Notes: a model not told the origin generated them from the sequence alone. A stretch of 64,000 nucleotides of DNA from an uncultured delta proteobacterium (GCA_963842085.1 CAWJET010000002.1:96001-160000); one strand, 5' to 3'. Positions 3,020 through 36,293 are shown, numbered from the stretch's first letter. Numbers and translations: made by a program.

Positions 3020-3685
3020 TCACACGCGCCCGCCAATCCAGATCACTCGCCCGATGATTTTCACGTTGGATACCACCATCGCCTCGTATTTCGGATTGTC
3101 GCTGCGCACCAGCACCTTCCCGTCTGGACGCCGCTGGACTCGCTTCACCGTAAGCCCGCCGTCATGCCGCAACAGGTAAATCCCGTCCTGCCGAAAGCGC
3201 GGCTCCGCCAGATTGGCCAGGATCAAGTCCGAATCCTTCACCGTCGGTGCCATCGAATCGCCCGCCGCCTCGATCAGGATCAGGTCGCGCGGCTCCGCAT
3301 TGAGCGTCTGCTTGACCCACGCCGCACGAAACGCGATCGAATCGACCACCTGCTCGCTGCTCAGTGTCCCGTCGCGCCCGCCCGAGAATCGGATCCGGTT
3401 GCGCGGCATGAAGATGAAGTCGCCATGCTCCCGCGCGCGCGCGCCCGCCCGCGAACTCGGCGACGCCTCGGCCCCCGTCGCCAGCCACTCCACCGTCACC
3501 CGCCCCGCTCGCGCCAGCGCCACCAGGTTCGCCACGCTCGGTTGCCCCCGCCCCGACAGCCATTTGTAGATCGCGTTGTCCGACACTCCCACCGCCGCCG
3601 CCAGCGCGGCCACCGCGCCGTACGCGTGGATCACCTGGGTCAGGCGGGAGCGGAAAGCTGCTTCGTCAACTACTGTAGTTGACAT
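3020..3685 (-). CDS. phage-type repressor, HTH + peptidase S24 (cI/LexA-like)
   Basis: N-terminal HTH (VGVSDNAIYKWLSG), GDSMAP catalytic Ser motif, TVKR Lys motif, SDNPKY; RBS GGAGG. Confidence 0.92.
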   Translation of the reverse strand: MSTTVVDEAAFRSRLTQVIHAYGAVAALAAAVGVSDNAIYKWLSGRGQPSVANLVALARAGRVTVEWLATGAEASPSSRAGARAREHGDFIFMPRNRIRFSGGRDGTLSSEQVVDSIAFRAAWVKQTLNAEPRDLILIEAAGDSMAPTVKDSDLILANLAEPRFRQDGIYLLRHDGGLTVKRVQRRPDGKVLVRSDNPKYEAMVVSNVKIIGRVIWIGGRV

Positions 3686-3709
3686 AAACCTCCTAGTGTG
3701 TAATAAAAT
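3665..3709 (+). promoter_or_regulatory. candidate operator palindrome overlapping a rightward -35 box
   Basis: GTCAACTAC-T-GTAGTTGAC (3665-3683) overlaps TTGACA (3679-3684); TAATAA/TAAAAT at 3701-3709. Confidence 0.5.
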
Positions 3710-4006
3710 TCATAAAGCGCATGATCCTGCCACCAGCAAATCACGCCCAACTCAAACCAAAGCCCCCGCCACCCCCGCGAGCGCTCTCGCGCTCCTGCCG
3801 TCTCCGCGCCATCCCTCTCTCCGCCCATCCCCCAACGCTCGCCGACGATCGATCTTACCGCCTATACATTTTTAAACTAGTTCGCGCCCTCGCGCCCGTG
3901 GTGCCGATGACGCTTCCTTTCGCTTTGACTGTCCCTTCCGCTCAAGGCCCGCTCGTTCCCTTCATTTCAAATTGTCCGATGCCGGATCAACTCGCGTGGA
4001 GGATTT

Positions 4007-4228
4007 ATGGAACCCGCGAACTCTCTGGTTCGTCCCACCGTCTTTAGTCGCGCCGCCGACTGTATGTGGTGTCATGAAACCACTACCCACGCCGACGTAA
4101 CCCGCCACCACGGCCTGTGCCGCAACTGCGTCCACGACAATGTCGAAATCAGTTGGCGCCTGGTTTACGACCGCGATCGCAACATCGGCTCGATTCCTTC
4201 CAATCTTCGGCTTGCGTACGGCTTATGA
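4007..4228 (+). CDS. small CxxC...CxxC zinc-binding protein
   Basis: GGAGG RBS; CMWC and CRNC pairs; ATGA overlap with the next gene. Confidence 0.6.
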   Translation: MEPANSLVRPTVFSRAADCMWCHETTTHADVTRHHGLCRNCVHDNVEISWRLVYDRDRNIGSIPSNLRLAYGL

Positions 4229-4722
4229 ACGCCGCCTTCAGCCGGATGCCCGCGCTCGACCGCGCTCCGTCGCCGCGCTTCAGTCCGTTCGCGCCCGTCG
4301 CGCGCGCCACGCTTTACGATCAGATCGGCCATTCGATCGGTGACGACGCCGCCGACAAGCTAATCGCGGATTTCGGCGGTCGCCGCCTGTATATCCCGAT
4401 GGCGCCCGCGCCCGGCGATTCGATCGCGCGCTCGATTGGACTGGCGGCGGCGCGGGCGATGGCGCGCGCGTTCGGTGGCGATCGCATCCTGGTTCCGATC
4501 ACCAGCAAATTTAACCGCCGGCGCGTGCGAATCGTCGCGATGCGCGCCGACCACGTCAGCGTCTCGCGCATCGCGCACGAACTCCGCTGCACCGAGCGCT
4601 ACGTGTACAAGGTGCTTGCGCTGAACCGCGCGCCCGATCCGCCCGCCGCCAACCCCGTTGCGCCAACGTCCGCGCCGCTCGCCGAGCGATTGAAACGTGG
4701 ACGGATCAATCAGCGCTCCTGA
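4225..4722 (+). CDS. Mor/C-family transcriptional activator (Mu-like late activator)
   Basis: ADFGGRRLYIP and AFGGDRILVP motifs, C-terminal HTH (SVSRIAHELRCTERYVYKVL); start taken at ATG 4225. Confidence 0.8.
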   Translation: MNAAFSRMPALDRAPSPRFSPFAPVARATLYDQIGHSIGDDAADKLIADFGGRRLYIPMAPAPGDSIARSIGLAAARAMARAFGGDRILVPITSKFNRRRVRIVAMRADHVSVSRIAHELRCTERYVYKVLALNRAPDPPAANPVAPTSAPLAERLKRGRINQRS

Positions 4723-5227
4723 CGCCTACACCCCCGAATTCCTGACCGCGGTCCAGCGCGTGCTCGCCAACGAGGGCGGCTATTCGTCGAATCCGGCCGA
4801 CCCCGGCGGCGCCACCAAGTTCGGAATTTCGGCGCGCGCGCATCCCGGACTCGACATCGCGACGCTCACGCGCGAGGCGGCGGTGGAAATCTACTGGCGC
4901 GAATGGTGGCTGCGCTTCGGCTTTGCGCAATTGCCGGCCGCGACCGCCGCCAAGACCTTCGATCTCGCCGTCAACATCGGCGCCGTCCATGCGATCCAAT
5001 GTCTTCAACGCGCGCTGCGCGCGTGCGGCGTGCCGGTCGCGGAAGACGGCGTGCTCGGCCCGGCCACCGCGCTCGCAGCCGGGCGCGCCGACTCCGCCGC
5101 GCTGACCGCTGCGCTGCGCTCCGAGGCCGCCGGCTATTACCGCGTGACCGCCGCGCTCGCCCGCGGCCAACGCAGGGACGACGACCGCGAATTTCTCAAG
5201 GGATGGCTGAACCGCGCGTACGCGTGA
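4697..5227 (+). CDS. glycoside hydrolase family 108 endolysin with PG-binding domain
   Basis: EGGYSSNPADPGGATKFGI, DGVLGPAT, FLKGWLNR. Confidence 0.92.
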   Translation: MDGSISAPDAYTPEFLTAVQRVLANEGGYSSNPADPGGATKFGISARAHPGLDIATLTREAAVEIYWREWWLRFGFAQLPAATAAKTFDLAVNIGAVHAIQCLQRALRACGVPVAEDGVLGPATALAAGRADSAALTAALRSEAAGYYRVTAALARGQRRDDDREFLKGWLNRAYA

Positions 5228-5280
5228 CCGAGCTTTTGGTTTTTCACGCCCGCGCCAGAGGCCGTGCAGGAAATGAAAAA

Positions 5281-5538
5281 GTGAAAAAGGCATTTCACAA
5301 ATCCAAGGCGTTTTACGGCTGCGTCAGCACGCTCGTTCTGATCGCCGGCGACATCGCGGCCAACGGCGCGACGCTCGGCAACATGACCGCGCTGCTGACT
5401 GCCGGACTTGCGCTGTACGGCCGGATCGTCGCGACCGCGCCGCTCGGCGTGAGCGACCAATCCGAGGCCGACGTCGAGGATGCAAAAGCAGATGTTCGAA
5501 GAAGCAAGATTTCTGTCGACGCGGACCATGGCAATTAG
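5281..5538 (+). CDS. putative holin
   Basis: GTG start; KAFHKSKAFYG followed by two hydrophobic segments ending LALYGRIVA and a charged tail; directly after the endolysin. Confidence 0.6.
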   Translation: MKKAFHKSKAFYGCVSTLVLIAGDIAANGATLGNMTALLTAGLALYGRIVATAPLGVSDQSEADVEDAKADVRRSKISVDADHGN

Positions 5539-5929
5539 CCGCTTTACTGCGGTGCAGGGCTTGGCCCTGCCGCGGAAGGGCGAAATCCGCGCAGGGTTTC
5601 GCGCATTTGGCTTTGTGCTTCTGTCCGCTTGCCTGTTTGCGGCGTGCGCGCCGACGTACGCGCCGCATATCGACGCGCCCGCGATGCCTGCATTGGATTC
5701 GGCCCAGCGCGCGACCCGATGCGCCGGCGCTGAAAAAATCGCGCCGCTCGATCCGCCCCCGCAGTTGCCGGACGCGGAGCAAGCGCCGTGTCCGCGCGGC
5801 TCGGGGCTGGCGGCGTGCTTCACGGCGGACCAGGACGCCGTCCGCCAGCAGCGTTTCAAAATTCTTCACGACGATCGCGACTATTGCCGCGACGCGTATA
5901 ACCGGGCGGTGAACCGTGTCTTTCAGTAA
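5528..5929 (+). CDS. Pro/Cys-rich lipoprotein, possibly spanin-like
   Basis: Lipobox LFAAC, Pro-rich middle, position in the lysis cassette; start uncertain. Confidence 0.55.
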   Translation: MAISRFTAVQGLALPRKGEIRAGFRAFGFVLLSACLFAACAPTYAPHIDAPAMPALDSAQRATRCAGAEKIAPLDPPPQLPDAEQAPCPRGSGLAACFTADQDAVRQQRFKILHDDRDYCRDAYNRAVNRVFQ

Positions 5930-6254
5930 AGGGTTTCACGCATCGTTGTTGCTGCTTGCGCTGGCGGCGCTGACGGCCTCGGCGGGATGCGCGCAGGTGC
6001 ACGAGAAGATGTTTACGCTCGACTGCGCGGCCGGCCGCGCGCCGCTGCCGGGCGAGCTGGCGCCGGGCACTGCGATGGCGCTTGACGTTTCGACCAGTCC
6101 GATCCCGCTGCTCTTTCCGCCCCATCGCGCGATCGCGCGATGCGACAACGCGGGCGTGGTGGCGATGAATATCGAGGAGCCGGTGGACACCGGGCTGAAC
6201 CAGCTATCGACGCCGCTCAGCACCGCTGCCAGCCATGTGACGTACGCGCCGTGA
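5916..6254 (+). CDS. lipoprotein of unknown function
   Basis: Signal peptide with SAGC lipobox; overlaps previous gene. Confidence 0.6.
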   Translation: MSFSKGFHASLLLLALAALTASAGCAQVHEKMFTLDCAAGRAPLPGELAPGTAMALDVSTSPIPLLFPPHRAIARCDNAGVVAMNIEEPVDTGLNQLSTPLSTAASHVTYAP

Positions 6255-6312: not shown

Positions 6313-6816
6313 ATGAGTTCGAAGCCTGGAAAATTGGCTCGCCTGTTTTCCCTGATGCTTTGCGCGCTCGCGTCCGTGTTAGCTGGATGCGGCGCGCCGC
6401 TGCAGGCGCAGCAAGGTGGCGGCTTGAAGGAGCCGACCATCCAGAGCCAGCTCGGCCATAACAATATCGTGCCGTCGGCTCCCGCGCTTACCCTGCAAAC
6501 GACCAATTTCTGCAACGCGCAAGCGCAAGTGGACTACGGCTACGCGGTATTGTTCTGCGAGAACAAGCTGGCTTCGCTGCCGGTCTCCTTCACCACCACC
6601 TACGGAGCGCAGGTGAACGCCGACTGGTGCTACACGAACCAGTACACCAACGCCAGCGGCCAGCTCTCCGTGCCCAAGGACGCTGCCGGCAATCCTATAA
6701 TTCCGACCCTGGGCAATTGTCCTTCCGGCACCGCACCCGCACCGGTGACCGCGCCGTCGGGAGCATCGGCAACCAAAACTTCCGCGCTCGCGCGCAACCT
6801 CGGCGCGCGCGCTTAA
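6313..6816 (+). CDS. lipoprotein of unknown function
   Basis: GAGGAG RBS; LAGC lipobox; four further Cys in the mature part. Confidence 0.7.
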   Translation: MSSKPGKLARLFSLMLCALASVLAGCGAPLQAQQGGGLKEPTIQSQLGHNNIVPSAPALTLQTTNFCNAQAQVDYGYAVLFCENKLASLPVSFTTTYGAQVNADWCYTNQYTNASGQLSVPKDAAGNPIIPTLGNCPSGTAPAPVTAPSGASATKTSALARNLGARA

Positions 6817-7279: not shown

Positions 7280-7582
7280 GTGGGATTGGGCGACGCCGCG
7301 GGATGGGCCGCCGCACTGATCGCGTTGGTCGCGGTCAACGCCAGCACCATTCAATGGCTGCTGAAGCGGCGCGACGAACAGCATCAGCGCGACTCCGGCC
7401 GGACCGACAATCTGGAAGACGAGTTTACCGATATGCGCGTGAATCTGCCGCTGGAGTACGTGCGGCGCGAGGACTGGATCAGGTTCAGCGGGACGCTCGA
7501 CGCCAAGCTGGACGCGATGCGCGAAGAAATGCGCGAAGAAATCGCAGAGGTAAAGGAAAGGCTCTATGCCGGACGGAATTGA
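7280..7582 (+). CDS. Mu gp25-like membrane-anchored coiled-coil protein
   Basis: N-terminal TM and LPLEYVRREDWIR motif; position before gp26/gp27-like genes. Confidence 0.65.
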   Translation: MGLGDAAGWAAALIALVAVNASTIQWLLKRRDEQHQRDSGRTDNLEDEFTDMRVNLPLEYVRREDWIRFSGTLDAKLDAMREEMREEIAEVKERLYAGRN

Positions 7583-7880
7583 TCTCGAACAGAAGAATCG
7601 CGAGGAAGCGCGCTGGCGGATGCTGCGGGTGGTCGATGCGGGACGGCCGATAGCGGTCTCCGAGCAGATAATCTGGCGCGTGCTCGCCGATATCAAGCTT
7701 GCGCTGTCGCTCAACGCCGTGCGTCGCGAACTCGTTTACCTGCGCGACCTGGGCTTGCTCGAACTCGAATGCGAGGACACGGAAACCTGGTTCGCGAAAC
7801 TCACGGCCAACGGCGTCGACGTGGTCGAGTACAACTTTCCGTCACCCGCCGGAGTCGCGCGCCCGCGCAAGTACTGGTGA
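7566..7880 (+). CDS. Mu gp26-like winged-helix protein
   Basis: RWRMLRVVDAGRP...RRELVYL...LTANGVDVV...GVARP pattern. Confidence 0.75.
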   Translation: MPDGIDLEQKNREEARWRMLRVVDAGRPIAVSEQIIWRVLADIKLALSLNAVRRELVYLRDLGLLELECEDTETWFAKLTANGVDVVEYNFPSPAGVARPRKYW

Positions 7881-7888
7881 GCGGCGGG

Positions 7889-8503
7889 ATGAAGGGAGAA
7901 AAGGGCGCGAAGAAAAGCGACCCCGGCGGCAAACCGAAACGAGTGCCGTATCGGCCGGTGCCGGCCAGGACCTGGAAGATCAAGCGGATGCCCAGGGATT
8001 TGAAGGAGCAGCTCGATAAGCTGCTCAGCGAAAGCAAGATGCATACCTCGCGGCAACTGAGTAAATGGCTGGGCGACAATGGCTTCGAGATCTCTCACCG
8101 CTGCATCGACGAATACCGGCACAACTTCGAGCGCCGCCTCGACGCGGTCCGGATGGCCACCGAGCGGGCGCGAATCGTCTGCGAGCAATTCAAAGATGAT
8201 GACACGCAAATGCAGAGCGCGCTGATGAGGCTGGTGCAAACCCGCCTGTTCGAAGTTTTGGTCGTCGCTAACGAAAAAGAAACTAACCGCAGGAAACGGA
8301 CCAGCCCGGTCGCCGCCGTGAATATCGCAGCGCTCGCGCGCACCGTGTCGGGCCTGGTGAAGGCGGAATCCGACCATCAGAAGTGGGCCGAGCGCATGCG
8401 CGCGGGAGTGGCGGCGGTGGGGAAGAAGATCGAGGAGGCACGGGCGAAGGGGCTGAGCAAGGACGCGGCGGATCAGATCAAGGCAGTGCTGCTGGAGATT
8501 TAG
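7889..8503 (+). CDS. Mu gp27-like (DUF3486) terminase small subunit
   Basis: KIKRMP...LSKWLGDNGFEISHRCIDEY, C-terminal GLSKDAADQIKAVLLEI; start at ATG 7889. Confidence 0.8.
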   Translation: MKGEKGAKKSDPGGKPKRVPYRPVPARTWKIKRMPRDLKEQLDKLLSESKMHTSRQLSKWLGDNGFEISHRCIDEYRHNFERRLDAVRMATERARIVCEQFKDDDTQMQSALMRLVQTRLFEVLVVANEKETNRRKRTSPVAAVNIAALARTVSGLVKAESDHQKWAERMRAGVAAVGKKIEEARAKGLSKDAADQIKAVLLEI

Positions 8504-8528
8504 CGGAGTGAGTTGTTTTCAGAAGGAA

Positions 8529-8808
8529 AGAATCCTGAATCGCGCGCTGAAAAAAGCGCGCTGGAAGCGGACCCTCACCTTCATCCTCTCCCTTGCAGGG
8601 AGAGGAGACAGAAGGACAGCCAGAAAACTTCGTCGATATCGGCGAGCGCCTGGTTGTTTGCAGTTGATTGTTCTGTATCTGTTTCCTCTCCGTTTAGAGA
8701 GAGCTTTGCCCAACCTGGCGCGCAGTTCTTCCCCTCTCCCTGCAAGGGAGAGGATGAAGGTGAGGGTCCTTATACAGCGCGCATTTTTCGCGCGCGAGTC
8801 ACGATTCC
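8529..8808. repeat. inverted pair of family A repeats (REPIN-like)
   Basis: 8529-8615 and 8730-8808 are reverse-complement copies around a ~115-bp spacer. Confidence 0.85.
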
Positions 8809-8816
8809 TTCCTTCT

Positions 8817-9173
8817 TTAATCTGCCTTCGAACCGCTGAGAAACCGGGCAATTGCGGCCAGAACTTCCTCAACATTCTCGAGCACTTGGTTGTTCCAGAA
8901 TCGAAGGACCCGGTAGCCCCGCGAACTCAGAAACAAGGTCCGGCTTTCGTCTTCCTGCGATCGCTCTGCATGTTGCGCGCCGTCGAGTTCGATGATGAGC
9001 CGCCGTTCAATCGAACAGAAGTCAGCGAAGTACGGCCCAATCGGGAACTGACGGCGAAACTTGGCGTCGCGCATCTGGCGGTCTCGCAGATGATGCCAGA
9101 GTATCCGTTCCGCGTCAGTTTGTTCGCGACGCAGCCGCCGCGCATTCTGCTGGGGCGATACGATCAAGGTCAT
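8817..9173 (-). CDS. DUF559 (Vsr-like) endonuclease
   Basis: ARRLRREQTDAERILW, KFRRQFPIGPYFADF, IELDGAQH, GYRVLRFWNNQV. Confidence 0.92.
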   Translation of the reverse strand: MTLIVSPQQNARRLRREQTDAERILWHHLRDRQMRDAKFRRQFPIGPYFADFCSIERRLIIELDGAQHAERSQEDESRTLFLSSRGYRVLRFWNNQVLENVEEVLAAIARFLSGSKAD

Positions 9174-9215
9174 CGTGAAAAATTGTTGCAATTTTGAAAC
9201 GAAAAACAAGATACG

Positions 9216-9397
9216 CAGAGAACAGAATCCTGAATCGCGCGCTAAAAAAAGCGCGCTGGACAATCCCCCTCACCCGCGTCTTCGGCGCGGCCTCTCCCGC
9301 AACCAAGCGGGCGAGGCAGGTATTCAGTGGCGGGGAACGCGACGCCCTAACTCGACCCTCACCTGTCTCCTCTCCCTTACAGGGAGAGGAGACAGAC
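9216..9397 (-). repeat. family A repeat cluster upstream of DUF559
   Basis: CAGAATCCTGAATCGCGCGC arm plus two CCTCTCCC...GGG(A/C)GAGG hairpins. Confidence 0.8.
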
Positions 9398-9413
9398 TAG
9401 TGGCTATTAGCTA

Positions 9414-11215: not shown

Positions 11216-12589
11216 ATGAAACTTTACGATGCTTACGGTCGCGAAGTAGATACCGGGATGCTGCGGGAAGAGCAGGCGGCGCCGACGATGGCAGGTGTGC
11301 GAAACATATATTCCGTGATGCATCCGTCGATCGGACTGACGCCGGAACGATTGACGGGAATTCTCCAGCAAGCCGAGTTTGGAGATCCGTATCTGTATCT
11401 CGAACTGGCCGAGGAGGTCGAGGAGAAGGATCTACATTACCTGGCCGTGCTGGGGACGCGGAAGAACGCGGTCGCGCAACTGGACCTGGTGGTGCGGGCG
11501 GCGTCGAGCGGGGCTGACGATCAGCGCGCGGCGACGATGGTGCGCGAGATGCTGGTCGAGGGACCGATACAGCTCGACAGCGTGCTGTTCGACGTGCTCG
11601 ACGCGGTGGGCAAGGGATTCTCGGCGACCGAGATAATGTGGGATACGACAGGGCGCGAATGGTTTCCGGCACAGTTGAAATGGCGCGACCCGCGCTGGTT
11701 CGCGTTCGACTGGATCTCGGGCGAGGAGATCCTGGTGCGGACGCTGAAGGGCGAGATAATCCCGGTCGAGAGCGACGCGCAGGTGCGGCAACCGACGCAT
11801 TTCGGCGGCAACGGATTGTACGCGTCGATGAGGCCGGGAATTGGAATACAGCCGATGACGGCGCCGCTGGCGCCGTACAAGTTCATCACTCATTTCGCGA
11901 AGGCGAAAGCCGGCCTGCCGATACGCGGCGGACTGGCGCGCGCGGCCGGGTGGGCCTACCTGTTCAAGAACTACGTACTAAAGGACTGGGTAACGTTCAC
12001 CGAGGTATTCGGGCAGCCGCTGAGAGTCGGCAAATACCATCCGGGGGCGTCGGAACAGGACAAGCAGGAATTACTCACTGCAGTGTCGCGAATAGGCACT
12101 GACGCGGCGGCGATAATGCCGGAGTCGATGGTAATAGAGTTTACCGAGGCGCATCAGAATGGCAGTTCGGAACTATATCAGAGCTTTTGCGAATACCTAG
12201 ATGCGCAGGTGAGTAAGGCAGTGCTCGGGCAGACATTGACTACTGAAATGCCTAAGTCAGGAGGGTCGCGAGCCGCCGCGCAAGTGCATGATGCGGTCCG
12301 CCGCGACATCCTGAGCGCGGATGCGCGGCGATTGGCGGCGACGCTCGCGCGCGATCTGGTACGGCCGATCGTCGAACTGAACATGGGGCCGCAAAAGCGT
12401 TATCCAACGATCGAGCTGGGACTGCCGGATGATAGCGATGTGAAAGTGTTCGCGGAGATCGTCGCGATGCTGGCGGATCGGGGACTGAGAGTCGGGCAGA
12501 AGACGATACTCGACAAGTTGGGAATCGCAGAGGCGGGGAAGGGAGAGGCGGTGCTGGGGGCGATCAAGAGGACGGAGGAACTCAATTAA
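11216..12589 (+). CDS. Mu gp29-like (DUF935) portal protein
   Basis: LELAEEVEEKDLHY, DAVGKGFSATEI, FGQPLRVGKY, VSKAVLGQTLT, AQVHDAVRRDI; GGAG RBS. Confidence 0.95.
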   Translation: MKLYDAYGREVDTGMLREEQAAPTMAGVRNIYSVMHPSIGLTPERLTGILQQAEFGDPYLYLELAEEVEEKDLHYLAVLGTRKNAVAQLDLVVRAASSGADDQRAATMVREMLVEGPIQLDSVLFDVLDAVGKGFSATEIMWDTTGREWFPAQLKWRDPRWFAFDWISGEEILVRTLKGEIIPVESDAQVRQPTHFGGNGLYASMRPGIGIQPMTAPLAPYKFITHFAKAKAGLPIRGGLARAAGWAYLFKNYVLKDWVTFTEVFGQPLRVGKYHPGASEQDKQELLTAVSRIGTDAAAIMPESMVIEFTEAHQNGSSELYQSFCEYLDAQVSKAVLGQTLTTEMPKSGGSRAAAQVHDAVRRDILSADARRLAATLARDLVRPIVELNMGPQKRYPTIELGLPDDSDVKVFAEIVAMLADRGLRVGQKTILDKLGIAEAGKGEAVLGAIKRTEELN

Positions 12590-24692: not shown

Positions 24693-24751
24693 GGTGCGGC
24701 AATTTCTAACAGGCCGGCGCGGGTGAATGCGAGGCGGGTGATTGGCAGGAA

Positions 24752-24806
24752 AGTTCAGGGCTGAACTGTTCAGCCTTATGCAAATTCGAAACGCGATGCA
24801 CAATGC
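24752..24806 (+). promoter_or_regulatory. candidate activator-dependent late promoter
   Basis: GGCTGAAC-T-GTTCAGCC palindrome (24759-24775), overlapping AGTTCAG-GG-CTGAACT, and a -10-like CACAAT near 24800 before the protease gene. Confidence 0.5.
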
Positions 24807-27450: not shown

Positions 27451-27618
27451 GGACGGGGCGATGAAACCAGTTTTCCTGGGCCGGCGTATCGCGGGTTCCC
27501 CTCCTGCCCGCGGCGCTGGAATGCGCGGCCACTCTCCGCGGGCGCAGGCCAGTTGCCTGACGCCCGCGAAGAGACCTATCGGGGGAATAGTTACTTCGGA
27601 TGCAATGAGGTTACGACA

Positions 27619-28057: not shown

Positions 28058-28879
28058 ATGGGTGCCATGCTCGACGCGCCATGGAACGGCGCGGTGTTCA
28101 CGCCCCCAACGGCGATCGATATCGCGACGATCGAAGACGCAATCGTCAGCCAGCTACAATCGCAAATCAACTCGATCGAAATCGCGCACTATCCGGATCG
28201 GCCCGAGAGCTGGCGCCTGACGCATCGCGTAGGCGCGGCGCTGGTAATGTACAAGGGCGCGCAATACGGCGAGCTGCTCGACACCGCGGCGATAATCCAG
28301 GAACGCAAACTCGAGTTCGAGATAGCGATAATTATGCGCGACCTGGGGTGGGCGGTCGGCGGCGACCCGTCGGGGCCGAGTCCCGGGGCGTACGCAATCA
28401 TTGAAGGCGTTCGCGCAGCGCTGACCGGGTATCTGATTCCGGGTTGCCGCAAGATGTACCCGGTGCGCGAGAAGTTCGTAAAGCGCGACAAGCAGGGGGG
28501 CGTGTGGACCTACGCGTCGACGTTTGCGCTGAGCACGATGGCAGTCGAAGCCTCGCAGCCGAACGACTACCCGCTCTTCATCAAGGGCGTGGCGCTGGAA
28601 GAAGGCGCACAGACTTCAATCACGGTCGGCGCGGCGGCGTACACATTCGGCTCCAACCTGCAGGTCCAGCTTCCGCAGGGCAACGTGTTTGCGGTGAGCG
28701 TGACGGGTCCCGGTGGAGCAGCGCTGATCGAGGGCACGGACTTTTCGGTCGATCGCGCGAACGGAATCATCGCGGCAATACAAGGCGGTGCAATAACCGC
28801 CGGCGAAACCGTGCAGATTGCATACGCATACGCCGAAGAGGCTATTGCGACAGCGGGCCAGAGCGAGCCGACTAACTAA
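28058..28879 (+). CDS. Mu gp37-like tail terminator with C-terminal extra domain
   Basis: YPDRPESWRLTHRVGAALVMYKG, GAYAIIEGVRAALTGY; ~90-aa extension. Confidence 0.8.
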   Translation: MGAMLDAPWNGAVFTPPTAIDIATIEDAIVSQLQSQINSIEIAHYPDRPESWRLTHRVGAALVMYKGAQYGELLDTAAIIQERKLEFEIAIIMRDLGWAVGGDPSGPSPGAYAIIEGVRAALTGYLIPGCRKMYPVREKFVKRDKQGGVWTYASTFALSTMAVEASQPNDYPLFIKGVALEEGAQTSITVGAAAYTFGSNLQVQLPQGNVFAVSVTGPGGAALIEGTDFSVDRANGIIAAIQGGAITAGETVQIAYAYAEEAIATAGQSEPTN

Positions 28880-28923: not shown

Positions 28924-30465
28924 ATGCCAGCCAGTTTTCTGCACGGAGTTGAGGTAATCGAAGTGCCTAACGGGCCGGTTCCGGTCACTGTCGTCAAGTC
29001 GGCAGTGATTGGACTGGTGGGAACGGCGCCGACGTGGGCGGTGGCGTCGCCGACGGTCGCAGCAGCGCTCAACACGCCGACGCTGGTTTCGTCGGCGCTC
29101 GATGCGGCGCAGCTCGGACCCCTGGTTCGCGGATACACCGTTCCGTACGCATTAGCGGCGATCCAGGCGCAGGGAGCAGGACAGGCGATCGTGGTCAACG
29201 TGTTCGATCCCAGCAGACATTTCACCGCGATAGCGGCGACCGCATTCACCTTCAATACGCAAGGAGCCATTAACCTCGGACACATGGGCGTGTCGAACGT
29301 GGTAGTCACTAGTAATCCGGCGGGTACTACCTATGTTGCGGGCACTGACTATACGATCGACGCGGTGAACGGCGCGATTGTGGTAGTGCCAGCAGGATCG
29401 GGAGGACATATCAGCGCCGGCGCCAGCGTATTGATCGCATTTGACTATGCGGATCCGTCGAAGGTGGCGGACGCAGACGTGATCGGAGCAATCACGGGCG
29501 GCGTTTACACGGGGATGCAGGCATTCCAGACGACCTACGGGACGATGGGATTCTTCCCCAAGATACTAATTGCTCCCGGCTACTCACAGGACGCGAGCGT
29601 CGGGACTGCGCTCGACGCGATGGCGAGGAAGATTCGCGCGATAGCGCTGGTAGATTCGCCGCCGGGGACCTCGGCGACGACCGCGATAACGAATCGGGGA
29701 GTCGTGGGCAACGGCTTCGCAACGTCGAGCAGCCGGACAGTTCTCTGCTATCCGCAGGAGACGTTTTTCGACACGGGAGTGGTGCCGACGGGAGTAACGC
29801 TCAACGCGTCGGGAACGCCGATACCGTCGCAATTCAACGCAAATGCGGTGGCGCCATATTCGCACTGGGTGGCAGGAGCGATAGCGGCGAAAGACCTGGC
29901 GCAAGGGTACTGGTGGTCGCCGTCCAACACGCAGGTCGATGGAATGCTCGGGCCGGACGTTCAGCTGTACGCGTCCATTCTGGACGCGTCGTCCGACGTG
30001 AACAACCTGAATGGGGCGGGAATCGTGACAGTGTTCAATGCATTCGGCACCGGCCTGCGGGTGTGGGGGAACAGGAGCGCGGCGTACCCGACGTCTACCG
30101 CGCCGGACAACTTTATCTCGGTGCGGCGCACGATGGACGCAATCGAGGAATCGGTGGAACTCGCGATGCTGCAGTTTATCGATCAACCGATCTCGAACGC
30201 GCTGATCGACGCGATCCTGGCCAGCGCGAACGCGTTCATCAGGTCGCTCATTCAGCGCGGCGCACTGGTAGCCGGCGCAGCAAGCTTCGACCCGGCGGAG
30301 AATCCAGCCGCGCAGATCGCGGCCGGGCAGCTGGTGTTCGACATCGACGTGATGCCTCCGCCGCCCGCGGAACGAATCACCTTTGAAGCATTCATAGATG
30401 CTGCGTTGCTGCAGCAACTCGGACAGACGAGTCCGATAACCGTAGCGGCCGGAGCGACGGCGTAA
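28924..30465 (+). CDS. contractile tail sheath (P2 FI-like)
   Basis: FLHGVEVIEV, SAVIGLVGTAP, PKILIAPG, GYWWSPSN, GLRVWGNRS, PPPAERITF. Confidence 0.95.
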   Translation: MPASFLHGVEVIEVPNGPVPVTVVKSAVIGLVGTAPTWAVASPTVAAALNTPTLVSSALDAAQLGPLVRGYTVPYALAAIQAQGAGQAIVVNVFDPSRHFTAIAATAFTFNTQGAINLGHMGVSNVVVTSNPAGTTYVAGTDYTIDAVNGAIVVVPAGSGGHISAGASVLIAFDYADPSKVADADVIGAITGGVYTGMQAFQTTYGTMGFFPKILIAPGYSQDASVGTALDAMARKIRAIALVDSPPGTSATTAITNRGVVGNGFATSSSRTVLCYPQETFFDTGVVPTGVTLNASGTPIPSQFNANAVAPYSHWVAGAIAAKDLAQGYWWSPSNTQVDGMLGPDVQLYASILDASSDVNNLNGAGIVTVFNAFGTGLRVWGNRSAAYPTSTAPDNFISVRRTMDAIEESVELAMLQFIDQPISNALIDAILASANAFIRSLIQRGALVAGAASFDPAENPAAQIAAGQLVFDIDVMPPPPAERITFEAFIDAALLQQLGQTSPITVAAGATA

Positions 30466-30489: not shown

Positions 30490-31009
30490 ATGAATATCCA
30501 GATCAACTCACTGACTAATGCAAATATATACATCGACGGCATCGGACTGCTCGGGCGGGCCGAAGAGATAGAGATCGCCAACCCCAAGCACAAGATGATC
30601 GACTACAAGGACCTGGGGATGGCGGGAACGGCCGAGTTGTGGGCGGGAGTGGAGAAGCTCGAGTCGAAGATCAAGTGGGCGTCGTTCGACGCGGATACGC
30701 TTACGCTGTCGACCAGTCCTTTCCAGACGCATTCCTTCCAGGCGCGAGGCAAACCTGGAGCAGTACACCAGCCAGGGCCGAACTGCACAGCTGCCGGTGG
30801 TGTACCTGATGACGGGAATCTTCAAGGATGCCGGCAGTCCGACTTTCCGCCAGCATCAGATGGTCGAAACCACGTCGGTAGTAAGTATCTATCACTGCGA
30901 GCTATTCGTGGCCGGAGTTCAAATATACTTGTACGACGTATTCGCCAATATCTACGTGGTCGGCGGCGTCGATCAACTGAGTACTTTCCGATCGAACCTT
31001 GGCGGCTGA
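30490..31009 (+). pseudogene. tail tube (P2 FII-like), +1 frameshift at ~30751-30753
   Basis: Removing one A from GGCAAACCTG joins MNIQINSLTNANIYIDG... to ...NLEQYTSQG...DQLSTFRSNLGG*, giving 172 aa; may be a sequencing error. Confidence 0.85.
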
Positions 31010-31043
31010 CGGAGCACAGCAGTGAAGCCGAAAGACGGGAGCG

Positions 31044-31820
31044 ATGACTAATGAAGAGCGACGAGATTACGGTGCCGGCGCAACGACCGCGAGTGTCGCA
31101 GCCGCGGCCACGGCCCCAGGAGCGAGCGCGAATGGCTACCTGGCGGGGCAGGTCAGCGTCCAGCTAAATCCGAATGCCTTGATCGCGAGCGTGACCAACA
31201 CGAGCACGACCACCGGCGGATCCGCGCCGGAAACGGACGACCATCTGCGCACGCGCATCCAGGCCGCGCCCAATCAGTTCAGCGTCGCCGGGCCGACGGG
31301 AGCGTACCGGTTCTATGCGATCGGCGCCGATCCATCGATTGTCGATGCGCAAATCGTCAGTCCCGCGCCCGGAGCGGTGAACGCGTACGTGCTGACCGGG
31401 CCGGTGACCGTGCAGCCGGCGGCGGCGCCAAACAGTGCGGGAGTCGCCAACTCGGCGCTGCTGGGGAAAGTCGCCGCGGTGCTGAATGCCGACACCGTGC
31501 GTCCGCTCACCGACACCGTAAATGTGCTCGCGGTGACCGAGGTGGATTACCAGATCACCGCGACCGTGACGCTTTACTCGGACGCGGATCCGACCGCGAC
31601 GATCACTGCGGCGACCGCCGCCGCGCAGGAGCTCGCGCTGGAGCTCGCGGCCAAGATTCAGCGCGACATCGTGCCGAGCCAGATAATAGCTGCGCTATCG
31701 GTCGCCGGCGTTTATGGCGTGACGCTCACGTCGCCGGTGCTGACCCCGCTTACGGCAGGGCAGTGGGCGAACTGCACGATGATCTCGCTGACGACGGCGT
31801 TCAGCACGGAGCACAGCTGA
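31044..31820 (+). pseudogene. baseplate J-like protein, N-terminally truncated
   Basis: GGSAPETDDHLRTRI, FSVAGPTGAYRF, VRPLTDTV motifs; N-terminal J region absent. Confidence 0.8.
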
Positions 31821-32683
31821 TGCCCGAGCTTTCGGCCGCGCCGTCGATCAACGATACCCGCACGCAAGCCTTGCTGGTGCTGATCGCGCGGCTCGCGGCG
31901 CTCGACCTCTCGACGCTGCTCGTTTACCGGATCGACTCGGTGGTGGAAGAGGCGTTGCCGTTCCTGGCGTGGCAATTCGACATCCTGTCTCCCCTGTGGC
32001 AATTGGTCGCGCCGGTGTCGCTCGGAGTTGACGCGCTTACCAACATCGATTTGCTGATCGACGTCGACAACCTGATCGAGTCCGGCGGCTTGGTCTCGGC
32101 GCAGGCTCTGACGGAAGCGGGCGAGCGCGAGCTGCTCAAGAGTGCGGTCGCGCTGCATCGCTTTCGCGGCACGCCGTGGGCGGTGAAGCAGGCGCTCGCG
32201 TCTTTGGGATGGACGCAGGTCACCCTGCTCGAAGGACAATTGAGCTGGGGTGGCGACGCGTATCCGCCGAACCAGGGATGGGCGGCGTTCCGCGTGATGA
32301 TCGATCTGGCGGCCGGACAGGGCGTATCGATTGGCGCGGCCTCGACGGCCTCGGCAGCGGTAAATTTCTTCAAACCGGCACGCGCGTGGCTGGACTCGTT
32401 ATGGTTTGCGGTGCCGGCGATTTCCGACGTGGGGCCCGCGCCATCAGACCGGTTGACGCTCGGCGGAATTGCCGAGTACCAGCTCGACGCGGCGCCCGCG
32501 CCGAGCGACAACGCGCTGGCGCTTGCAGTGGCGACGGCGTCGCTGACCGATGCGTACGGTCCGATTGTACCCGCTTACGACGGTCACTATCTGCACAGCG
32601 GGATTACTTACGGCGTCAACGAACCCGCGGTTGCAGACTCGGCGCTGATCGTCAGCGGCGCAGCCGTATTGCACGGAGGTTAA
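31820..32683 (+). CDS. P2 gpI-like baseplate/tail protein
   Basis: ALPFLAWQF, RELLKSAVALHRFRGTPWAVK, FFKPAR; TGATG coupling to J. Confidence 0.88.
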   Translation: MPELSAAPSINDTRTQALLVLIARLAALDLSTLLVYRIDSVVEEALPFLAWQFDILSPLWQLVAPVSLGVDALTNIDLLIDVDNLIESGGLVSAQALTEAGERELLKSAVALHRFRGTPWAVKQALASLGWTQVTLLEGQLSWGGDAYPPNQGWAAFRVMIDLAAGQGVSIGAASTASAAVNFFKPARAWLDSLWFAVPAISDVGPAPSDRLTLGGIAEYQLDAAPAPSDNALALAVATASLTDAYGPIVPAYDGHYLHSGITYGVNEPAVADSALIVSGAAVLHGG

Positions 32684-32684
32684 A

Positions 32685-33149
32685 ATGAGCAGGCCGATTG
32701 GAATCGTGCGAGTCCGCCTGGTCGAGCGCGGCCGTATCGTATGGGCATACGAGGGCCGCAATCTTTTCGTGAACGCCGGGCTGCCGGCGCTCGCAGCGCT
32801 GCTCGGCGGCGATACCACCGGCGAATTCGCAGCTGCGGTCGGATTCGGCTCGGGAACGAACGTGCCGACGGTGGCCGACACGGCGCTGACCGCGCCCGCA
32901 TATTACAAGGCGCTCGACGGCCACAGCGAAGACGGCAACGGCAGCGTGACCTTCAACTGGTCGCTGACGACGGGCGATACGGGCGCGCAGGGGATCACCA
33001 TTCAGGAGCTGGCGATCTTCGCCAATCATGCCAGCGCGGCACTGCCCGGAACGACCGCGCCGACCCCGATGCTCGCGCGCAAGACGATCGCGCCAATAGT
33101 ATTTGGCGCAGGAATGAGTATTAGCGGCACGTGGACGCTTACTTTCTGA
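32685..33149 (+). CDS. phage tail-associated protein
   Basis: NLFVNAG...GFGSGT..PT.ADTAL...G.TIQEL..F...LARKT pattern; GGAGG RBS. Confidence 0.75.
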   Translation: MSRPIGIVRVRLVERGRIVWAYEGRNLFVNAGLPALAALLGGDTTGEFAAAVGFGSGTNVPTVADTALTAPAYYKALDGHSEDGNGSVTFNWSLTTGDTGAQGITIQELAIFANHASAALPGTTAPTPMLARKTIAPIVFGAGMSISGTWTLTF

Positions 33150-33157
33150 GGTAGTCA

Positions 33158-33730
33158 ATGGCTACACTAATCGACGCAGCCGAGTACACCTCGAATGAGG
33201 TGTATCAGATTCAAGCAACCGATCCGGTCGAAGGCGCTGCCAGCGGCGCGAGTTTCAGCGGCACCGGCATCTCGAATCAACCGCATCAGCAACTGGCTAA
33301 TCGCACCGCATTTCTGAAACAGCGGCAGGACGTAAATATCTCGAATATCGGAGTATTGCAGGCGTTCCAGGCATTGTTTACCGGCCTGATGGCGCAAAAT
33401 GGCTACTTGAAGATTCCCGTCGCGGACATAAATCGCGGGCTCGTCCAGTATATTATCCAGTGGGGTCTTGGGAACTGGGGCAGCAAGCAGAGCGAGGGAC
33501 TCTATGGGCCTTATTCCTTCCCGATTGCCTTCCCCAACGCGTGCGAAGTGTTCATGCCGGTGACATTGACGCCGGAGTCGCCCGGCCATGCAGGCGCCGG
33601 CGATAACGTCCTGATGATCAGCGCCAGCTACCTCCCGACCACCTCACAGTTCTGGGTCTGGAACAACAGTCCTGGTCCCGACTCGACTGATGCTTCGCAA
33701 GGCTTTTACTGGTTCGCGATCGGATTCTGA
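33158..33730 (+). CDS. short tail fibre-like protein (gp53-like C-terminus)
   Basis: VYQIQATDPVEG, NQPHQQLANRTAFLK, NGYLKIP..IIQWG, FPIAFPNAC, YWFAIGF. Confidence 0.85.
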   Translation: MATLIDAAEYTSNEVYQIQATDPVEGAASGASFSGTGISNQPHQQLANRTAFLKQRQDVNISNIGVLQAFQALFTGLMAQNGYLKIPVADINRGLVQYIIQWGLGNWGSKQSEGLYGPYSFPIAFPNACEVFMPVTLTPESPGHAGAGDNVLMISASYLPTTSQFWVWNNSPGPDSTDASQGFYWFAIGF

Positions 33731-33764
33731 GGCTATCAAGAAAGCTTGCGATGGGTGGATGGAG

Positions 33765-36293
33765 ATGAATTTGAGACGGACGATTTCGCCAGCGGTCGCA
33801 GCCGTGATGTTCGCCGCGACGATCCTGCTGTCTATGAGTTCCGGGGCGCTGGCGCAGAATCTGCCGCCGCCCGGAGCTTATCAGCCGATACCGAACTTCA
33901 CGGGTGTGGGCGCGGGGTTGCAGTTCCGCGAAGCGATCAACCAGCGATTTTCCGGCAGCCAGCCGATCTCACCCGCGATAGTCACGCCGACCTTTGCCAA
34001 TCTGCCAGCTGAGCAGGATGGGATGTTGCTCTTCTGCAAGGACTGCAGGAGTGCGACGCCGTGCGTGAGCGGCGGAGCCGGTGCGTGGGCCCTGGGTACT
34101 CGAGGACAATGGGCATGCGCAGGCGCCGCGCTGGAAGCGAGCCTCAACGCGAATGGCAACAAGGTATCGAACCTCGCCAGCGCGACCGTCAATGGCGACG
34201 CGCTCGCGTTCGGACAGACGGGCGCGCAGCTCAACACGCTGTCGGGCTCGAAGCTCGACGGCAGCGACGCAATCGCCAATGTCAGCGTAAATGGCGCGCG
34301 CAACGCGGCGGATTATGGCGTCGTTTCCGGCTCGCAGAACACGGGCAGCGTCACAATCTCAGCCGGCTCGACGTCCGCGACGCTCGCGGCGGCTGGCGAC
34401 TGGGAAAACGGCGAGCGTATCGCGGTTCCGGGCGCTGGCCCAACGCCGTCGATTGCGACGCCCACGGCGCCGACCGTCGCCGCGACGTGCTCAGGTACGT
34501 GTGCAACGGGCTATACCTACAAAGTTGCCGCGCTCGACGGAAAGTGCGGTGAGACCGCGGCTAGTGTTGCGAGCACAAGCGTAAATAATGCGGTCACTCT
34601 GACCGAAGCAAAGTTCAACATGCTCACGATACCGACAGCGGCAGGTTACACTGCATTCGTCGTTTATCGCGGTACGTCGCCAATCGCGATCATTCCTGCG
34701 TCGGAAGAGAACGCCAGCAACGTCAGCCCGGCGACCTACTATCGCGACATCGGTGGAAGTGCCATCACGATTGTCAGCCCGTGCCTTTCGGCGACGCCGC
34801 CAAGCAGCGCCGGTGCGGATGCGCTCTACACGACGATCTCAAGCGGCGGCGGCACGACGATTCTGACCTTGGCGAACGCGGCGACCACCAGCGTTACGTC
34901 CGCGACCAGCTATCATGACGACTCTGTGGCTATTGCGACCGCCGCGACGCCCACGAGCTACGCGACGGGTGTGCGCGTTGCGCTGCCGCCCAATGTGAGG
35001 TTTGCGGTGAGTCAGCCGATTGTGGTCGGCGGCGTGCCCGGTGCTTCCAGCAATACATGGGCTGGCATTCAGCTAACCGGCGGTTCGTACACGTCGATTG
35101 CGACTACGCCGATGATGCAGGGGATGAGCGTCATCAAGGGCGTCAATACTTTTCAGATGGCGACGGATGACATCGACATTGACGAGAGCAACGGATCGGC
35201 GCTCTGCGCGGTCGAGCATAATGTAAACAACCCTGTAGGCGGAATCGGTGGCGCATACGTCGGCGAGAGTCAGGACACCAACCTGAATTTCTCGACCGGC
35301 CAGCCATACTATGGGATCTGCTACACGGCCGCGGCGGGCTACGACCAGAACAATTCAGAGAACTTCATTCGTGCACTGCAAGGCTCGGCCGTTAACGCAG
35401 CAGTCTTAATTGGACACTCGCAGTCGCTTCAAAACACTATCTACGGCGGCAACTTTGCGGGCGTTGGCGAGGGCGCGATAGAGTTGCATGGCGGCTCGTT
35501 TCACATGCTTGGCGGTATCTCTAGCTCGAATGTGTGGATGTTCGACTTCGAGGCTGGTGGCTACGACCATCAGAGTAGTGCGACCGGAGTTACTGTCGAG
35601 ATCGGGCCTGCGACTCTCTATGCTGCTGCGGCTGCGACTTTTTACGGTAGTAACAACGGTATGTCTATTACGAACTCCGATCTAGGTATGCAGTCCACCA
35701 GCACGGGCGGGCTAGCGGTTGACGTCGAGAACACGGGTTTTGTGCTGCACGTCAGCAATTCTCGCTGGCAAGATGGGGGTGCTGCCGAAAACATCACCTT
35801 CAAGGGCTCCTTGGCAACTATTACTGATAGCTGGTCAGGCGCGGGCGCAATTATCAACGGTAGCGGTATAATGAACATTTGGCGCACAGAGTTCGCCAGT
35901 GGCGCTCCCACCATTACCAACGGCGGCACCTTTTGCGGGCAGCAGAATATCCCCATAGGTGTTCTTCCAGGTTCTCCGCTCAATGCACGCCCTCAAAGCG
36001 CTCCGTGGGATTCCGCGGTCGTTCAAACAGTAATTACCGGCGTGACGGCGGGCACAGCGGTTTGCTCTCAGCCATTCGCAGGCCCCAGCTATGTTAAAGC
36101 GATTTGTTACTTGAACGGCTACGAGAACACGACCGGCACGGCGCAGACCTATACGTATCCACATTCCTTTATTCAGAATCCCTATCTCGCGCACGACGAT
36201 TCAGGCGGCTCAACCGCCAATACTACGACGCTGACCTTTCCAGCGACCATGAGCAGCACCAAGACTGGCTGGGTGGTGGTCGAGGGCTATTAA
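33765..36293 (+). CDS. tailspike/adhesin-like protein with Sec signal peptide
   Basis: MNLRRTISPAVAAVMFAATILLSMSSGALA|Q; NAADYG and DDSVAI beta-helix-cap-like motifs; last gene of the tail operon. Confidence 0.7.
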   Translation: MNLRRTISPAVAAVMFAATILLSMSSGALAQNLPPPGAYQPIPNFTGVGAGLQFREAINQRFSGSQPISPAIVTPTFANLPAEQDGMLLFCKDCRSATPCVSGGAGAWALGTRGQWACAGAALEASLNANGNKVSNLASATVNGDALAFGQTGAQLNTLSGSKLDGSDAIANVSVNGARNAADYGVVSGSQNTGSVTISAGSTSATLAAAGDWENGERIAVPGAGPTPSIATPTAPTVAATCSGTCATGYTYKVAALDGKCGETAASVASTSVNNAVTLTEAKFNMLTIPTAAGYTAFVVYRGTSPIAIIPASEENASNVSPATYYRDIGGSAITIVSPCLSATPPSSAGADALYTTISSGGGTTILTLANAATTSVTSATSYHDDSVAIATAATPTSYATGVRVALPPNVRFAVSQPIVVGGVPGASSNTWAGIQLTGGSYTSIATTPMMQGMSVIKGVNTFQMATDDIDIDESNGSALCAVEHNVNNPVGGIGGAYVGESQDTNLNFSTGQPYYGICYTAAAGYDQNNSENFIRALQGSAVNAAVLIGHSQSLQNTIYGGNFAGVGEGAIELHGGSFHMLGGISSSNVWMFDFEAGGYDHQSSATGVTVEIGPATLYAAAAATFYGSNNGMSITNSDLGMQSTSTGGLAVDVENTGFVLHVSNSRWQDGGAAENITFKGSLATITDSWSGAGAIINGSGIMNIWRTEFASGAPTITNGGTFCGQQNIPIGVLPGSPLNARPQSAPWDSAVVQTVITGVTAGTAVCSQPFAGPSYVKAICYLNGYENTTGTAQTYTYPHSFIQNPYLAHDDSGGSTANTTTLTFPATMSSTKTGWVVVEGY

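Follow-up and report, generated by a model that had tools for sequence, protein, structure and literature searches.

A transposase-less Mu-like virion gene set inherited vertically in the Binataceae: a candidate domesticated particle element

Is a set of Mu-like virion genes, lying between a carboxyltransferase gene and murF in the chromosome of a soil bacterium, a prophage in decay or a particle-forming system that its hosts have kept? The locus was found in a window of 64,000 nucleotides (GCA_963842085.1 CAWJET010000002.1:96001-160000), by which we mean the whole stretch of DNA that was analysed. The host of the window is a metagenome-assembled genome (MAG) of Candidatus Binatus/Binataceae, an uncultured soil family, and the genome (G000) is 4.93 Mb in size. 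The element occupies positions 3020-36293 of the window and comprises two blocks, the first ending at 12589 and the second beginning at 24813, with 12.2 kb between them. An earlier note on this DNA had proposed that it is a domesticated system resembling a gene transfer agent (GTA). From the comparisons described here, it is probable that the element is an ancient descendant of a Mu-like myovirus, fixed in the chromosome, devoid of transposase and vertically inherited under purifying selection, and that it represents a domesticated particle element of the GTA or PBSX kind.

Conservation and vertical inheritance of the element

The occurrence of the element was scored in 127 Binataceae genomes of at least 85% completeness, which represent 28 genera, and within the genus of the window (g1) in 39 genomes, or 38 without that of the window itself. 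These tallies take in six genomes flagged as unpublished (G018, G023, G094, G140, G145 and G146), which enter into none of the other conclusions. A single intact copy of the capsid gene was found in all 38 other genomes of the genus, in 100 of the 127 family genomes and in 21 of the 28 genera; the gene is almost always present as one intact copy, at 76-99% identity. The tail hub gene was likewise present in 38/38 and 99/127 genomes, and the gene for the large terminase subunit (TerL) in 35/38 and 97/127. The portal gene was found in 21 of 24 in the genus, and gave one weak match (E = 2e-4) in 16 genomes from ten other families of the class.

Gene order was compared in the regions of six same-genus species. 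Four of these (G016, G009, G013 and G006) share an order which in block 1 runs carboxyltransferase, repressor, an open reading frame (ORF) of 73 amino acids (aa), Mor, lysis genes, phrog_436, gp27, TerL and portal, and then continues with three reverse-strand genes, the genes for an NHL-repeat protein and an ABC-type ATPase, the genes from gpI to the tail tube, ~5 kb of tail genes, baseplate J and the fibre. The NHL protein and the ATPase are conserved between the blocks in the genus, with no ABC match in G006. Species G014 has the genus order, with no carboxyltransferase match in the fetched region, and in G007 block 1 is at the genus locus and block 2 is elsewhere, 1.25 Mb away. The murF gene falls inside the fetched region in G009, G014 and G006 and outside it in G016 and G013, where it is ~15-17 kb from the capsid gene. 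When distances were collated, murF and the capsid gene were 12-25 kb apart in every same-genus genome with both on one contig, and also in genera g42, g23, g20, g22, g28 and g40; they are less than 5 kb apart in G129, which has a partial capsid match, and murF is unlinked to the element in g38, g24, g19 and others. In the genus, the element has therefore kept its place beside murF, the ABC ATPase and the carboxyltransferase, a linkage to which the earlier note had attached weight, and patchy presence at varying loci, which it had named as contrary evidence, was not found.

The distance between the blocks falls into three classes. The TerL and capsid genes are contiguous, 4.3-5.3 kb apart, in g29, g31 and g41, and the portal gene is directly beside gpI in G083 and in the IMG/VR loci L263, L257 and L262. 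The distance is 11-39 kb in g1, g24, g38 and g42, and in G141 and G121 the blocks are on different contigs. The separated copies of G007, G141 and G121 keep capsid, hub and TerL intact. These classes indicate that the portal/gpI junction is a hotspot of insertion and breakage and that the two-block form is secondary.

An element tree was constructed by a quick method from gpI, phrog_1731, capsid, gp36, gp37 and sheath (46 rows, 1791 columns), and was compared with a host tree of murF alone (45 rows) on 42 shared taxa, the rows for the divergent copies G126 and G060, for two outgroup clusters and for G008, which has no element locus, having been dropped. The two trees have 26 of 39 splits in common (1000 shuffles of the labels gave 0.23 on average and never more than 3), and thus agree in the way that the earlier note had expected of a domesticated locus. 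Of the murF splits with support of at least 95, 17/18 recur in the element tree, and 21/27 in the reverse direction; there is one well-supported conflict. Patristic distances in the two trees are correlated (Pearson 0.83), and by inspection the element tree keeps every sampled genus together as one group, and the tip pairs agree.

Selection was assessed as pairwise Nei-Gojobori (NG86) medians of dN/dS among seven same-genus species, of which G007 contributes only in block 1; values for Mor, gp27, P2_I and the gene at 14159 were computed after false N-terminal extensions had been trimmed. For eight structural and packaging genes dN/dS is 0.05-0.16, well below 1 as foreseen, and by these estimates the structural genes are constrained like housekeeping genes (Table 1). 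Element genes with valid estimates have a dS of 0.47-0.74, against 0.57 for the carboxyltransferase and 0.69 for murF, and as these values equal those of the flanks the element is as old as the flanking host genes within the genus. Neither relaxed selection nor an orthologous version bearing MuA, which the earlier note had named as results that would count against it, was found.

The domains Mu-transpos_C and HTH_Tnp_Mu_1 had no match in the whole 4.93-Mb genome. The control genomes for these two domains also gave no match; Mu-transpos_C did match in 28 of 128 family genomes, so the search can detect this domain in Binataceae. Its occurrence there is patchy and, where places were compared, the matches are either 50 kb or more away from the element or on a separate contig. 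A further family, PF02914 (DDE_2), matched nothing in any genome, its controls included, and was set aside. The gap from the repressor to the 73-aa ORF or Mor is ~260-750 bp in 7/7 copies in which that end is seen, and 80 IMG/VR loci from the lineage of this capsid (75-98% identity, with flanks of up to 10 kb) contained no MuA-like protein. Among the main ORFs scanned with Pfam no integrase or replication families were detected, transposase being confined to the multicopy insertion sequence (IS); the small unknown ORFs and the 867-aa ORF have no assigned family. Mu F (PF04233) is absent from G000, G009, G068 and G060. The consistent absence of MuA and MuB can thus be extended from the window to every copy examined, none of which has either beside it.

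A second cluster in one family genome (G136:C22) served as a positive control: its capsid is ~70% identical, it has a 756-aa open frame with Mu-transpos_C, and Mu F is present. Several of the Mu-transpos_C matches adjoin second tail-hub copies that are only 45-50% identical, and in the element tree the G136:C22 cluster and the divergent copies G126, G060 and G091:C15 are placed outside the conserved clade on long branches. As judged from these comparisons, the genuine MuA-bearing Mu-like prophages of the family are patchy, distant paralogues.

Gene content and control region of the window

Genes were called from an ORF listing with Pfam and PHROG scans, and some ORFs were also searched against PADLOC and NCBIfam/TIGRFAM (Table 1). 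All of the repressor, Mor, lysis, terminase, portal, protease, capsid and tail genes named in the earlier note were recovered in place by the Pfam and PHROG scans, and the coordinates agree with its description of a tight fit, 65 bp from the carboxyltransferase gene and 17 bp from murF. The early region is missing as it had described, since the ~560 bp between repressor and Mor hold just the 73-aa ORF. The GC content of the element is 58-68%, compared with 61-62% for the genome, and only the region at ~15-20 kb deviates (51-56%). An Rfam scan of the window returned no known RNA family, and the nucleotide conservation along the locus revealed no exceptionally conserved non-coding block.

Table 1. 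Features of the window, with the evidence for each and the dN/dS estimate where one was obtained
Feature	Position	Strand	Evidence	dN/dS
Carboxyltransferase (host flank)	1377-2954	-	family scan	0.09
LexA/CI-type repressor, HTH_3 + Peptidase_S24	3020-3685	-	Pfam; 79-86% identical in 6 congeners	0.19
73-aa Cys4 putative zinc-ribbon protein	4007-4228	+	sole gene between repressor and Mor	0.25
Mor/C-family activator	4246-4722 (start inferred; ORF from 4117)	+	Pfam Mor 4.2e-10	0.32
Endolysin, GH108 + PG_binding_3	4697-5227	+	Pfam	0.32
Protein with one transmembrane (TM) segment, lysis accessory candidate	5480-5929	+	hydrophobic segment; partly conserved	
Two predicted lipoproteins, lysis accessory candidates	5916-6254, 6313-6816	+	lipobox-like sequences; partly conserved	
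phrog_436 protein	7566-7880	+	86-93% identical in congeners, highly conserved	0.10
Mu gp27-like protein	7877-8503 (ORF from 7769)	+	Pfam Phage_Mu_Gp27 1.4e-27	0.23
Large terminase TerL, full length, 507 aa	9414-10937	+	phrog_2; aligned 1-507 in congeners, 83-91%	0.11
Mu-type portal	11216-12589	+	Pfam Portal_Mu 2.5e-101; single copy in own genome	0.11
S-adenosylmethionine (SAM) methyltransferase, cargo	12747-13565	-	Pfam Methyltransf_24	0.19-0.24 (cargo genes)
Lipoprotein, cargo	13614-14096	-	conserved with element	0.19-0.24 (cargo genes)
TM protein, cargo	14159-14821 core (cargo region to 15166)	-	conserved with element	0.19-0.24 (cargo genes)
Genome-specific insert	15200-20200	.	51-56% GC, unknown genes, multicopy IS	
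STAS + HATPase-like gene in insert	15612-16520	-	scan	
298-aa unknown protein in insert	16563-17459	-	no family	
IS transposase (rve) in insert	18007-19020	.	Pfam	
NHL-repeat/Ig-like protein	20652-23609	+	Pfam	0.24
ABC-type ATPase	23886 to ~24700-24800	-	Pfam	
Conserved dyad GTTCAGGGCTGAACTGTTCAGCC	24753-24775	+	~38 nt upstream of gpI	
Mu gpI protease/scaffold	24813-25943	+	Pfam Mu-like_Pro 9.5e-71	0.16
Virion structural protein	25983-26465	+	phrog_1731	0.07
Mu gpT major capsid protein	26506-27450	+	Pfam Mu-like_gpT 1.6e-93	0.05
gp36 (head completion/head-tail joining)	27553-28056	+	Pfam Phage_Mu_Gp36	0.16
gp37 (head completion/head-tail joining)	28058-28879	+	Pfam Gp37	0.15
Tail sheath, full length	28924-30465	+	Pfam	0.09
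Tail tube, frameshifted	30490-31009/31047	+	Pfam, model positions 2-85 of 165 only	
Baseplate_J fragment in fusion ORF	31044-31820	+	Pfam, model positions 57-255 of 255 only	
P2 gpI-like baseplate protein	31763-32683	+	Pfam Tail_P2_I	0.18
phrog_5417 protein	within 31820-33730	+	PHROG	0.12-0.25 (baseplate/fibre proteins of 31820-33730)
gp53-C-like fibre protein	33158-33730	+	Pfam	0.12-0.25 (baseplate/fibre proteins of 31820-33730)
867-aa variable distal protein	33690-36293	+	no family match	
murF (host flank)	36311-37759	-	TIGR01143 above cut-off	0.19

The translated repressor shows a GDSM stretch and a downstream Lys, which we read as the Ser and Lys motifs. In the 73-aa protein C19, C22, C38 and C41 are invariant in 8 orthologues. 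Its ORF matches no family of Pfam, PHROGs, PADLOC or NCBIfam, PDB entries came up in a profile search only at E values of at least 0.4, and the AlphaFold 2 (AF2) model has a mean pLDDT of 68, with no fold assigned. The gp27-like protein is presumably the small terminase subunit, as in Mu. At the distal end, the 867-aa protein is probably a fibre or receptor-binding part; it is poorly conserved within the genus, with partial matches in two of the five congener regions that hold block 2, and coverage drops there.

The dyad upstream of gpI is kept with few changes in 10 genomes of four genera, where the alignment shows it amid a divergent spacer, and it is unique in the window, with 0 chance matches expected. 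It is a candidate for the activator site of a block-2 promoter and sits just upstream of a possible -10 element, an arrangement which appears to resemble that of the Mor/C-dependent promoters of Mu. It is thus plausible that block 2 starts at a late promoter, as the earlier note had proposed. No second copy was found in the window, half-sites included, and so a late-promoter motif shared by several operons could not be shown.

Between the blocks, the ~12 kb that had been described as non-phage DNA is a real interruption, but it is not all foreign to the element: cargo genes accompany the element, the NHL and ABC genes are conserved in the genus, and what is peculiar to this genome is confined to ~15.2-20.2 kb. 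The cargo genes, three in number and on the reverse strand, occupy the place of Mu F and G, and accompany the element in g1 and g24. The insert gave no PADLOC match. Its IS transposase recurs elsewhere in the genome, complete and 100% identical at 9 sites and as one truncated 94% copy. The ABC-type ATPase has no permease gene adjoining it in the window, and gives partial matches to defence-associated ATPase models (mad3 5.7e-25, AriA) and to many transporter ATPases; a 689-aa ORF at this gene is a high-GC extension which overlaps gpI on the opposite strand.

Several smaller features were recorded along the window. An ORF at 7303-7653 was rejected as a gene, since each of the 6 relatives has stops in it and its dN/dS makes no sense. 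The frame 7280-7582, which overlaps it, is more likely to be the gene; its 100-aa product has an N-terminal TM segment and a charged helical tail, and may belong to the lysis or packaging region. The first half of the ORF at 4903-5538 is doubtful (stops in 2/6 relatives). Relatives either lack the 0.9-kb spacer that separates gp27 from TerL or have a different one, and short stretches within 8508-9400 and at ~14900-15100 match many places in the genome, with 67-90% identity at the level of protein translation, which suggests a dispersed repeat of ~75-110 bp. An isolated fragment of the fibre region, comprising the end of phrog_5417 and part of the gp53-C-like gene (98% over 43 residues), is found on another contig (G000:C1:2341804-2342186). 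Beyond murF, the minus-strand ORF 37830-39407 is probably spurious and is overlapped by a plus-strand gene at 38421-39482, which is 80% identical in g30 genomes and has a match below cut-off to a BhcC-like aldolase/alanine-racemase fold.

Lesions, losses and the explanations of the locus

The tail lesions of the window copy that the earlier note had pointed out are real. Homology of the window DNA extends across the entire tube gene into the gene that follows, breaks off there after ~10 codons and resumes inside J, so that ~5.05 kb is deleted, with the junction near 31074. What remains is the in-frame fusion ORF of Table 1, which joins ~10 codons of a tail chaperone-like gene to the C-terminal ~250 residues of baseplate J. 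The deleted genes, as identified in G009, encode a 156-aa chaperone-like protein, a 99-aa RRM_1 protein, a 266-aa tape-measure candidate, gpU, X, the gpD-like hub, the V spike, W/gp25 and the N-terminus of J, and the window genome is the only one of the 39 in its genus without the hub. The deletion is real, as its junction is bridged by a contig from an independent soil run, X5 (record 21, 30914-32256, one differing letter and no gaps). In addition, a 1-nt insertion near 30750 throws the tube gene out of frame beyond residue 87. The X5 contig and a minor contig of X3 are without this additional base (30751), and for X2 no contig lacking it is listed; the absence of the base in some soil contigs indicates that the tube frameshift is polymorphic.

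Terminal-branch omega was estimated for the head and sheath gene sets in the window genome and in four congeners. It is 0.105 for the head genes, compared with 0.098-0.118 in the congeners, and 0.116 for the sheath, compared with 0.078-0.148. These values are not raised, which places the loss in the window genome in the recent past. The possibility, raised in the earlier note, that missing genes lie elsewhere in the genome did not hold, for F is absent and not merely unseen, and the deleted tail genes are not elsewhere in the genome. The window copy therefore cannot make tailed particles; it is a recently tail-deleted copy, either non-functional or head-only, and could at most form tail-less heads. 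Of the GTA-like system that had been proposed, the domestication is strongly supported for the lineage, with all comparative checks favourable, while the capacity of this particular copy to produce tailed particles does not.

The genes affected by the deletion also vary in relatives. The tape-measure candidate is fast-evolving, only ~34% identical within the genus, with 266 aa in G009 and lengths estimated from gaps of ~360+ aa in G014 and G006, ~450 aa in G083 and ~780 aa in G068, and none in G141. The RRM_1 gene (99 aa; L016:10240-10539 in G009) is located between the chaperone-like gene and the tape-measure candidate, with 84-93% identity within the genus. Further copies occur in G141, G083, the MuA-bearing cluster G136:C22 and G091:C15, and the window genome has four RRM_1 paralogues on contig C1 that are 42-46% identical.

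A number of observations weigh against a domesticated particle element. It is dispensable, as in g30 capsid and hub are present in 0/6 genomes and TerL in 1/6, in g34 capsid and hub are present in 1/6 and TerL in 0/6, and g18, g25 and g43 are without the element. When 16 rows were added to the murF tree, these genera (g30, g34 with g25, g18 and g43) were nested among bearers, which indicates several losses. Two g30 contigs (G090:C158 and G086:C11; loci L269-L272) carry the element's three reverse-strand genes (methyltransferase, lipoprotein and TM protein) directly beside murF with no phage gene nearby, which looks like a deletion scar of the element. Particle genes are lost or broken in other species too: G083 has no capsid gene and a split gpI, G004 has neither TerL nor portal, and the capsids of G003 and G057 are split, and to these can be added frameshifts in some relatives (e.g. 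G014), which may be assembly errors. In G141 the RRM gene and gpU are too close together to accommodate a tape measure, and so selection may not everywhere be for a contractile tail that works. With regard to inheritance, the Spearman correlation of patristic distances is only 0.53, the orders of capsid and murF identity differ slightly in the genus core, and the host tree, whose deep nodes are weak, is of a single gene, itself linked in some of the family to block 2. The head of Mu holds ~39 kb, and the contiguous copy of G068, which spans ~34 kb, might fit a head of that size, so the evidence does not place head capacity below the length of the locus as it is in GTAs.

Whether these losses mark an ordinary cryptic Mu-like prophage that decays neutrally, its wide presence reflecting slow deletion, can be judged from the genes that remain. 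Such decay would explain the 5-kb tail deletion and tube frameshift of the window copy, the capsid or terminase block lost in other species, the element lost in whole genera, and the disappearance of MuA, MuB and F. However, at a dS of ~0.5-0.7 neutral ORFs would be full of stops, and almost all of ~100 species have capsid, TerL, portal, sheath and hub at full length, with dN/dS values of 0.05-0.16 (hub not estimated), as low as those of the flanking housekeeping genes; even in the window genome, where terminal-branch omega is not raised, decay is recent. Neutral decay is for these reasons a very unlikely account of the locus. Conservation could instead reflect the fitness of a phage, if the element were still autonomous and temperate and reintegrated at one site. 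Most relatives do possess all the genes for regulation, lysis, packaging, head and tail, 112 contigs with a capsid of this lineage are classed as viral in IMG/VR, and the gene for the distal fibre varies strongly, as it does in active phages. We consider it scarcely credible all the same, because there is no transposase or integrase besides IS and no replication family in the main ORFs, nor Mu-transpos_C in the genome, the element tree follows that of murF as far as the tip pairs, dS is equal to that of the host flanks, host-type genes are embedded and conserved between the blocks, and blocks that are 1.25 Mb apart or on different contigs (G007, G141 and G121) stay intact.

It is also conceivable that the locus is kept for a function that requires no particles, such as superinfection immunity through the repressor or a benefit from the embedded cargo (methyltransferase, lipoproteins, NHL protein and ABC-type ATPase), and that the virion genes are carried along. 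Hitch-hiking of this kind would not spare ~25 kb of linked ORFs from frameshifts over a dS of ~0.6, and it is capsid, sheath, terminase and portal that are most constrained, rather than the repressor or the cargo. The cargo is nonetheless under purifying selection, only the three cargo genes survive beside murF in g30, and the ABC-type ATPase has partial matches to defence-associated models. Against this, the copies of g29, g31 and g41 are without room for cargo between TerL and capsid, those of G083 and L263, L257 and L262 are without cargo between portal and gpI, and yet the virion genes are kept; a particle-free function thus seems improbable as the reason for retention. A domesticated particle element, lost in several lineages and recently disabled in the window genome, remains the explanation that we favour.

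For such an element we infer regulation, packaging of host DNA and a benefit to the host from the genes present. In intact relatives an autocleavable repressor of the LexA/CI type would keep the divergent early promoter shut. DNA damage, possibly through coupling of the repressor to host RecA, or another signal would then allow transcription of the 73-aa protein, Mor, the lysis cassette, gp27/TerL and the portal, and Mor would activate the separate promoter at the dyad before gpI, leading to production of head, sheath, tube, baseplate and fibre even where this block is distant. Without MuA and MuB there would be no replicative transposition, and the terminase could only fill heads from the host chromosome; the GH108 lysin would free the particles. 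Blocks that are 1.25 Mb apart (G007) or on different contigs (G141 and G121) cannot be co-packaged. The more specific proposal, of an independently evolved GTA that derives from a Mu-like myovirus, is family-wide and sometimes multi-locus, is controlled by an SOS-type repressor and Mor, and has a headful terminase which, deprived of transposition, packages the host chromosome so that cells of this uncultured soil phylum can exchange it, is put forward tentatively, as a possibility that falls short of even chances.

Significance and comparison with known systems

The signature of domestication extends across ~100 species and combines single-copy presence, co-phylogeny, low dN/dS, loss of transposase and F, and intact separated blocks. 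The family also provides natural knock-outs, with a tail-less copy in the window, a capsid-less one in G083, a terminase-less one in G004 and complete loss in g30. If the particles move host DNA, they would provide an abundant lineage of the soil with a means of exchanging genes, and would show a headful-packaging transposable phage becoming a host tool. Few independent GTA lineages are known, and none is known to derive from a transposable Mu-like phage or to occur in Binatota. No paper linking Binatota with gene transfer agents was found in the library searched, and among the papers listed on GTAs and Mu-like phages (PMC12724379 among them) no Mu-type GTA is named in titles or abstracts.

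The isolated phages nearest to the element are Mu and Mu-like phages (Pseudomonas B3/D3112-type, Ralstonia RS138 and Rhodobacter RC1). With Mu it shares Phage_Mu_Gp27, Portal_Mu, Mu-like_Pro, Mu-like_gpT, Gp36, Gp37 and Mor, a contractile tail of the Mu/P2 type, and the gene order lysis, packaging, head and tail. Its proteins are no more than 43% identical to those of any isolated phage and, unlike Mu, it has an S24 LexA/CI-like repressor, a fixed and vertically inherited locus, and host-type genes between portal and gpI, and is without MuA/MuB, the early region and Mu F. The absence of MuA/MuB and of F means that two defining features of a Mu prophage are lacking.

In common with GTAs (RcGTA of Rhodobacterales, BaGTA and VSH-1), the element is a phage-derived structural cluster without replication or integration functions, which is family-wide, shows co-phylogeny with its host and purifying selection, is multi-locus in some species and has its own lysis genes. 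It differs in its ancestor, a Mu-like myovirus with a contractile tail, in its host phylum, and in keeping a phage-type circuit of S24 repressor and Mor. Nor is it an R-type tailocin, a contractile tail without capsid, portal or terminase, since it has capsid, portal and TerL and these rank with its most constrained genes. PBSX of Bacillus has killing activity and packages 13 kb of DNA. The element resembles it in general description, as a fixed, repressor-controlled, defective myovirus-like element that is common to related species and carries terminase, head, contractile tail and lysis genes.

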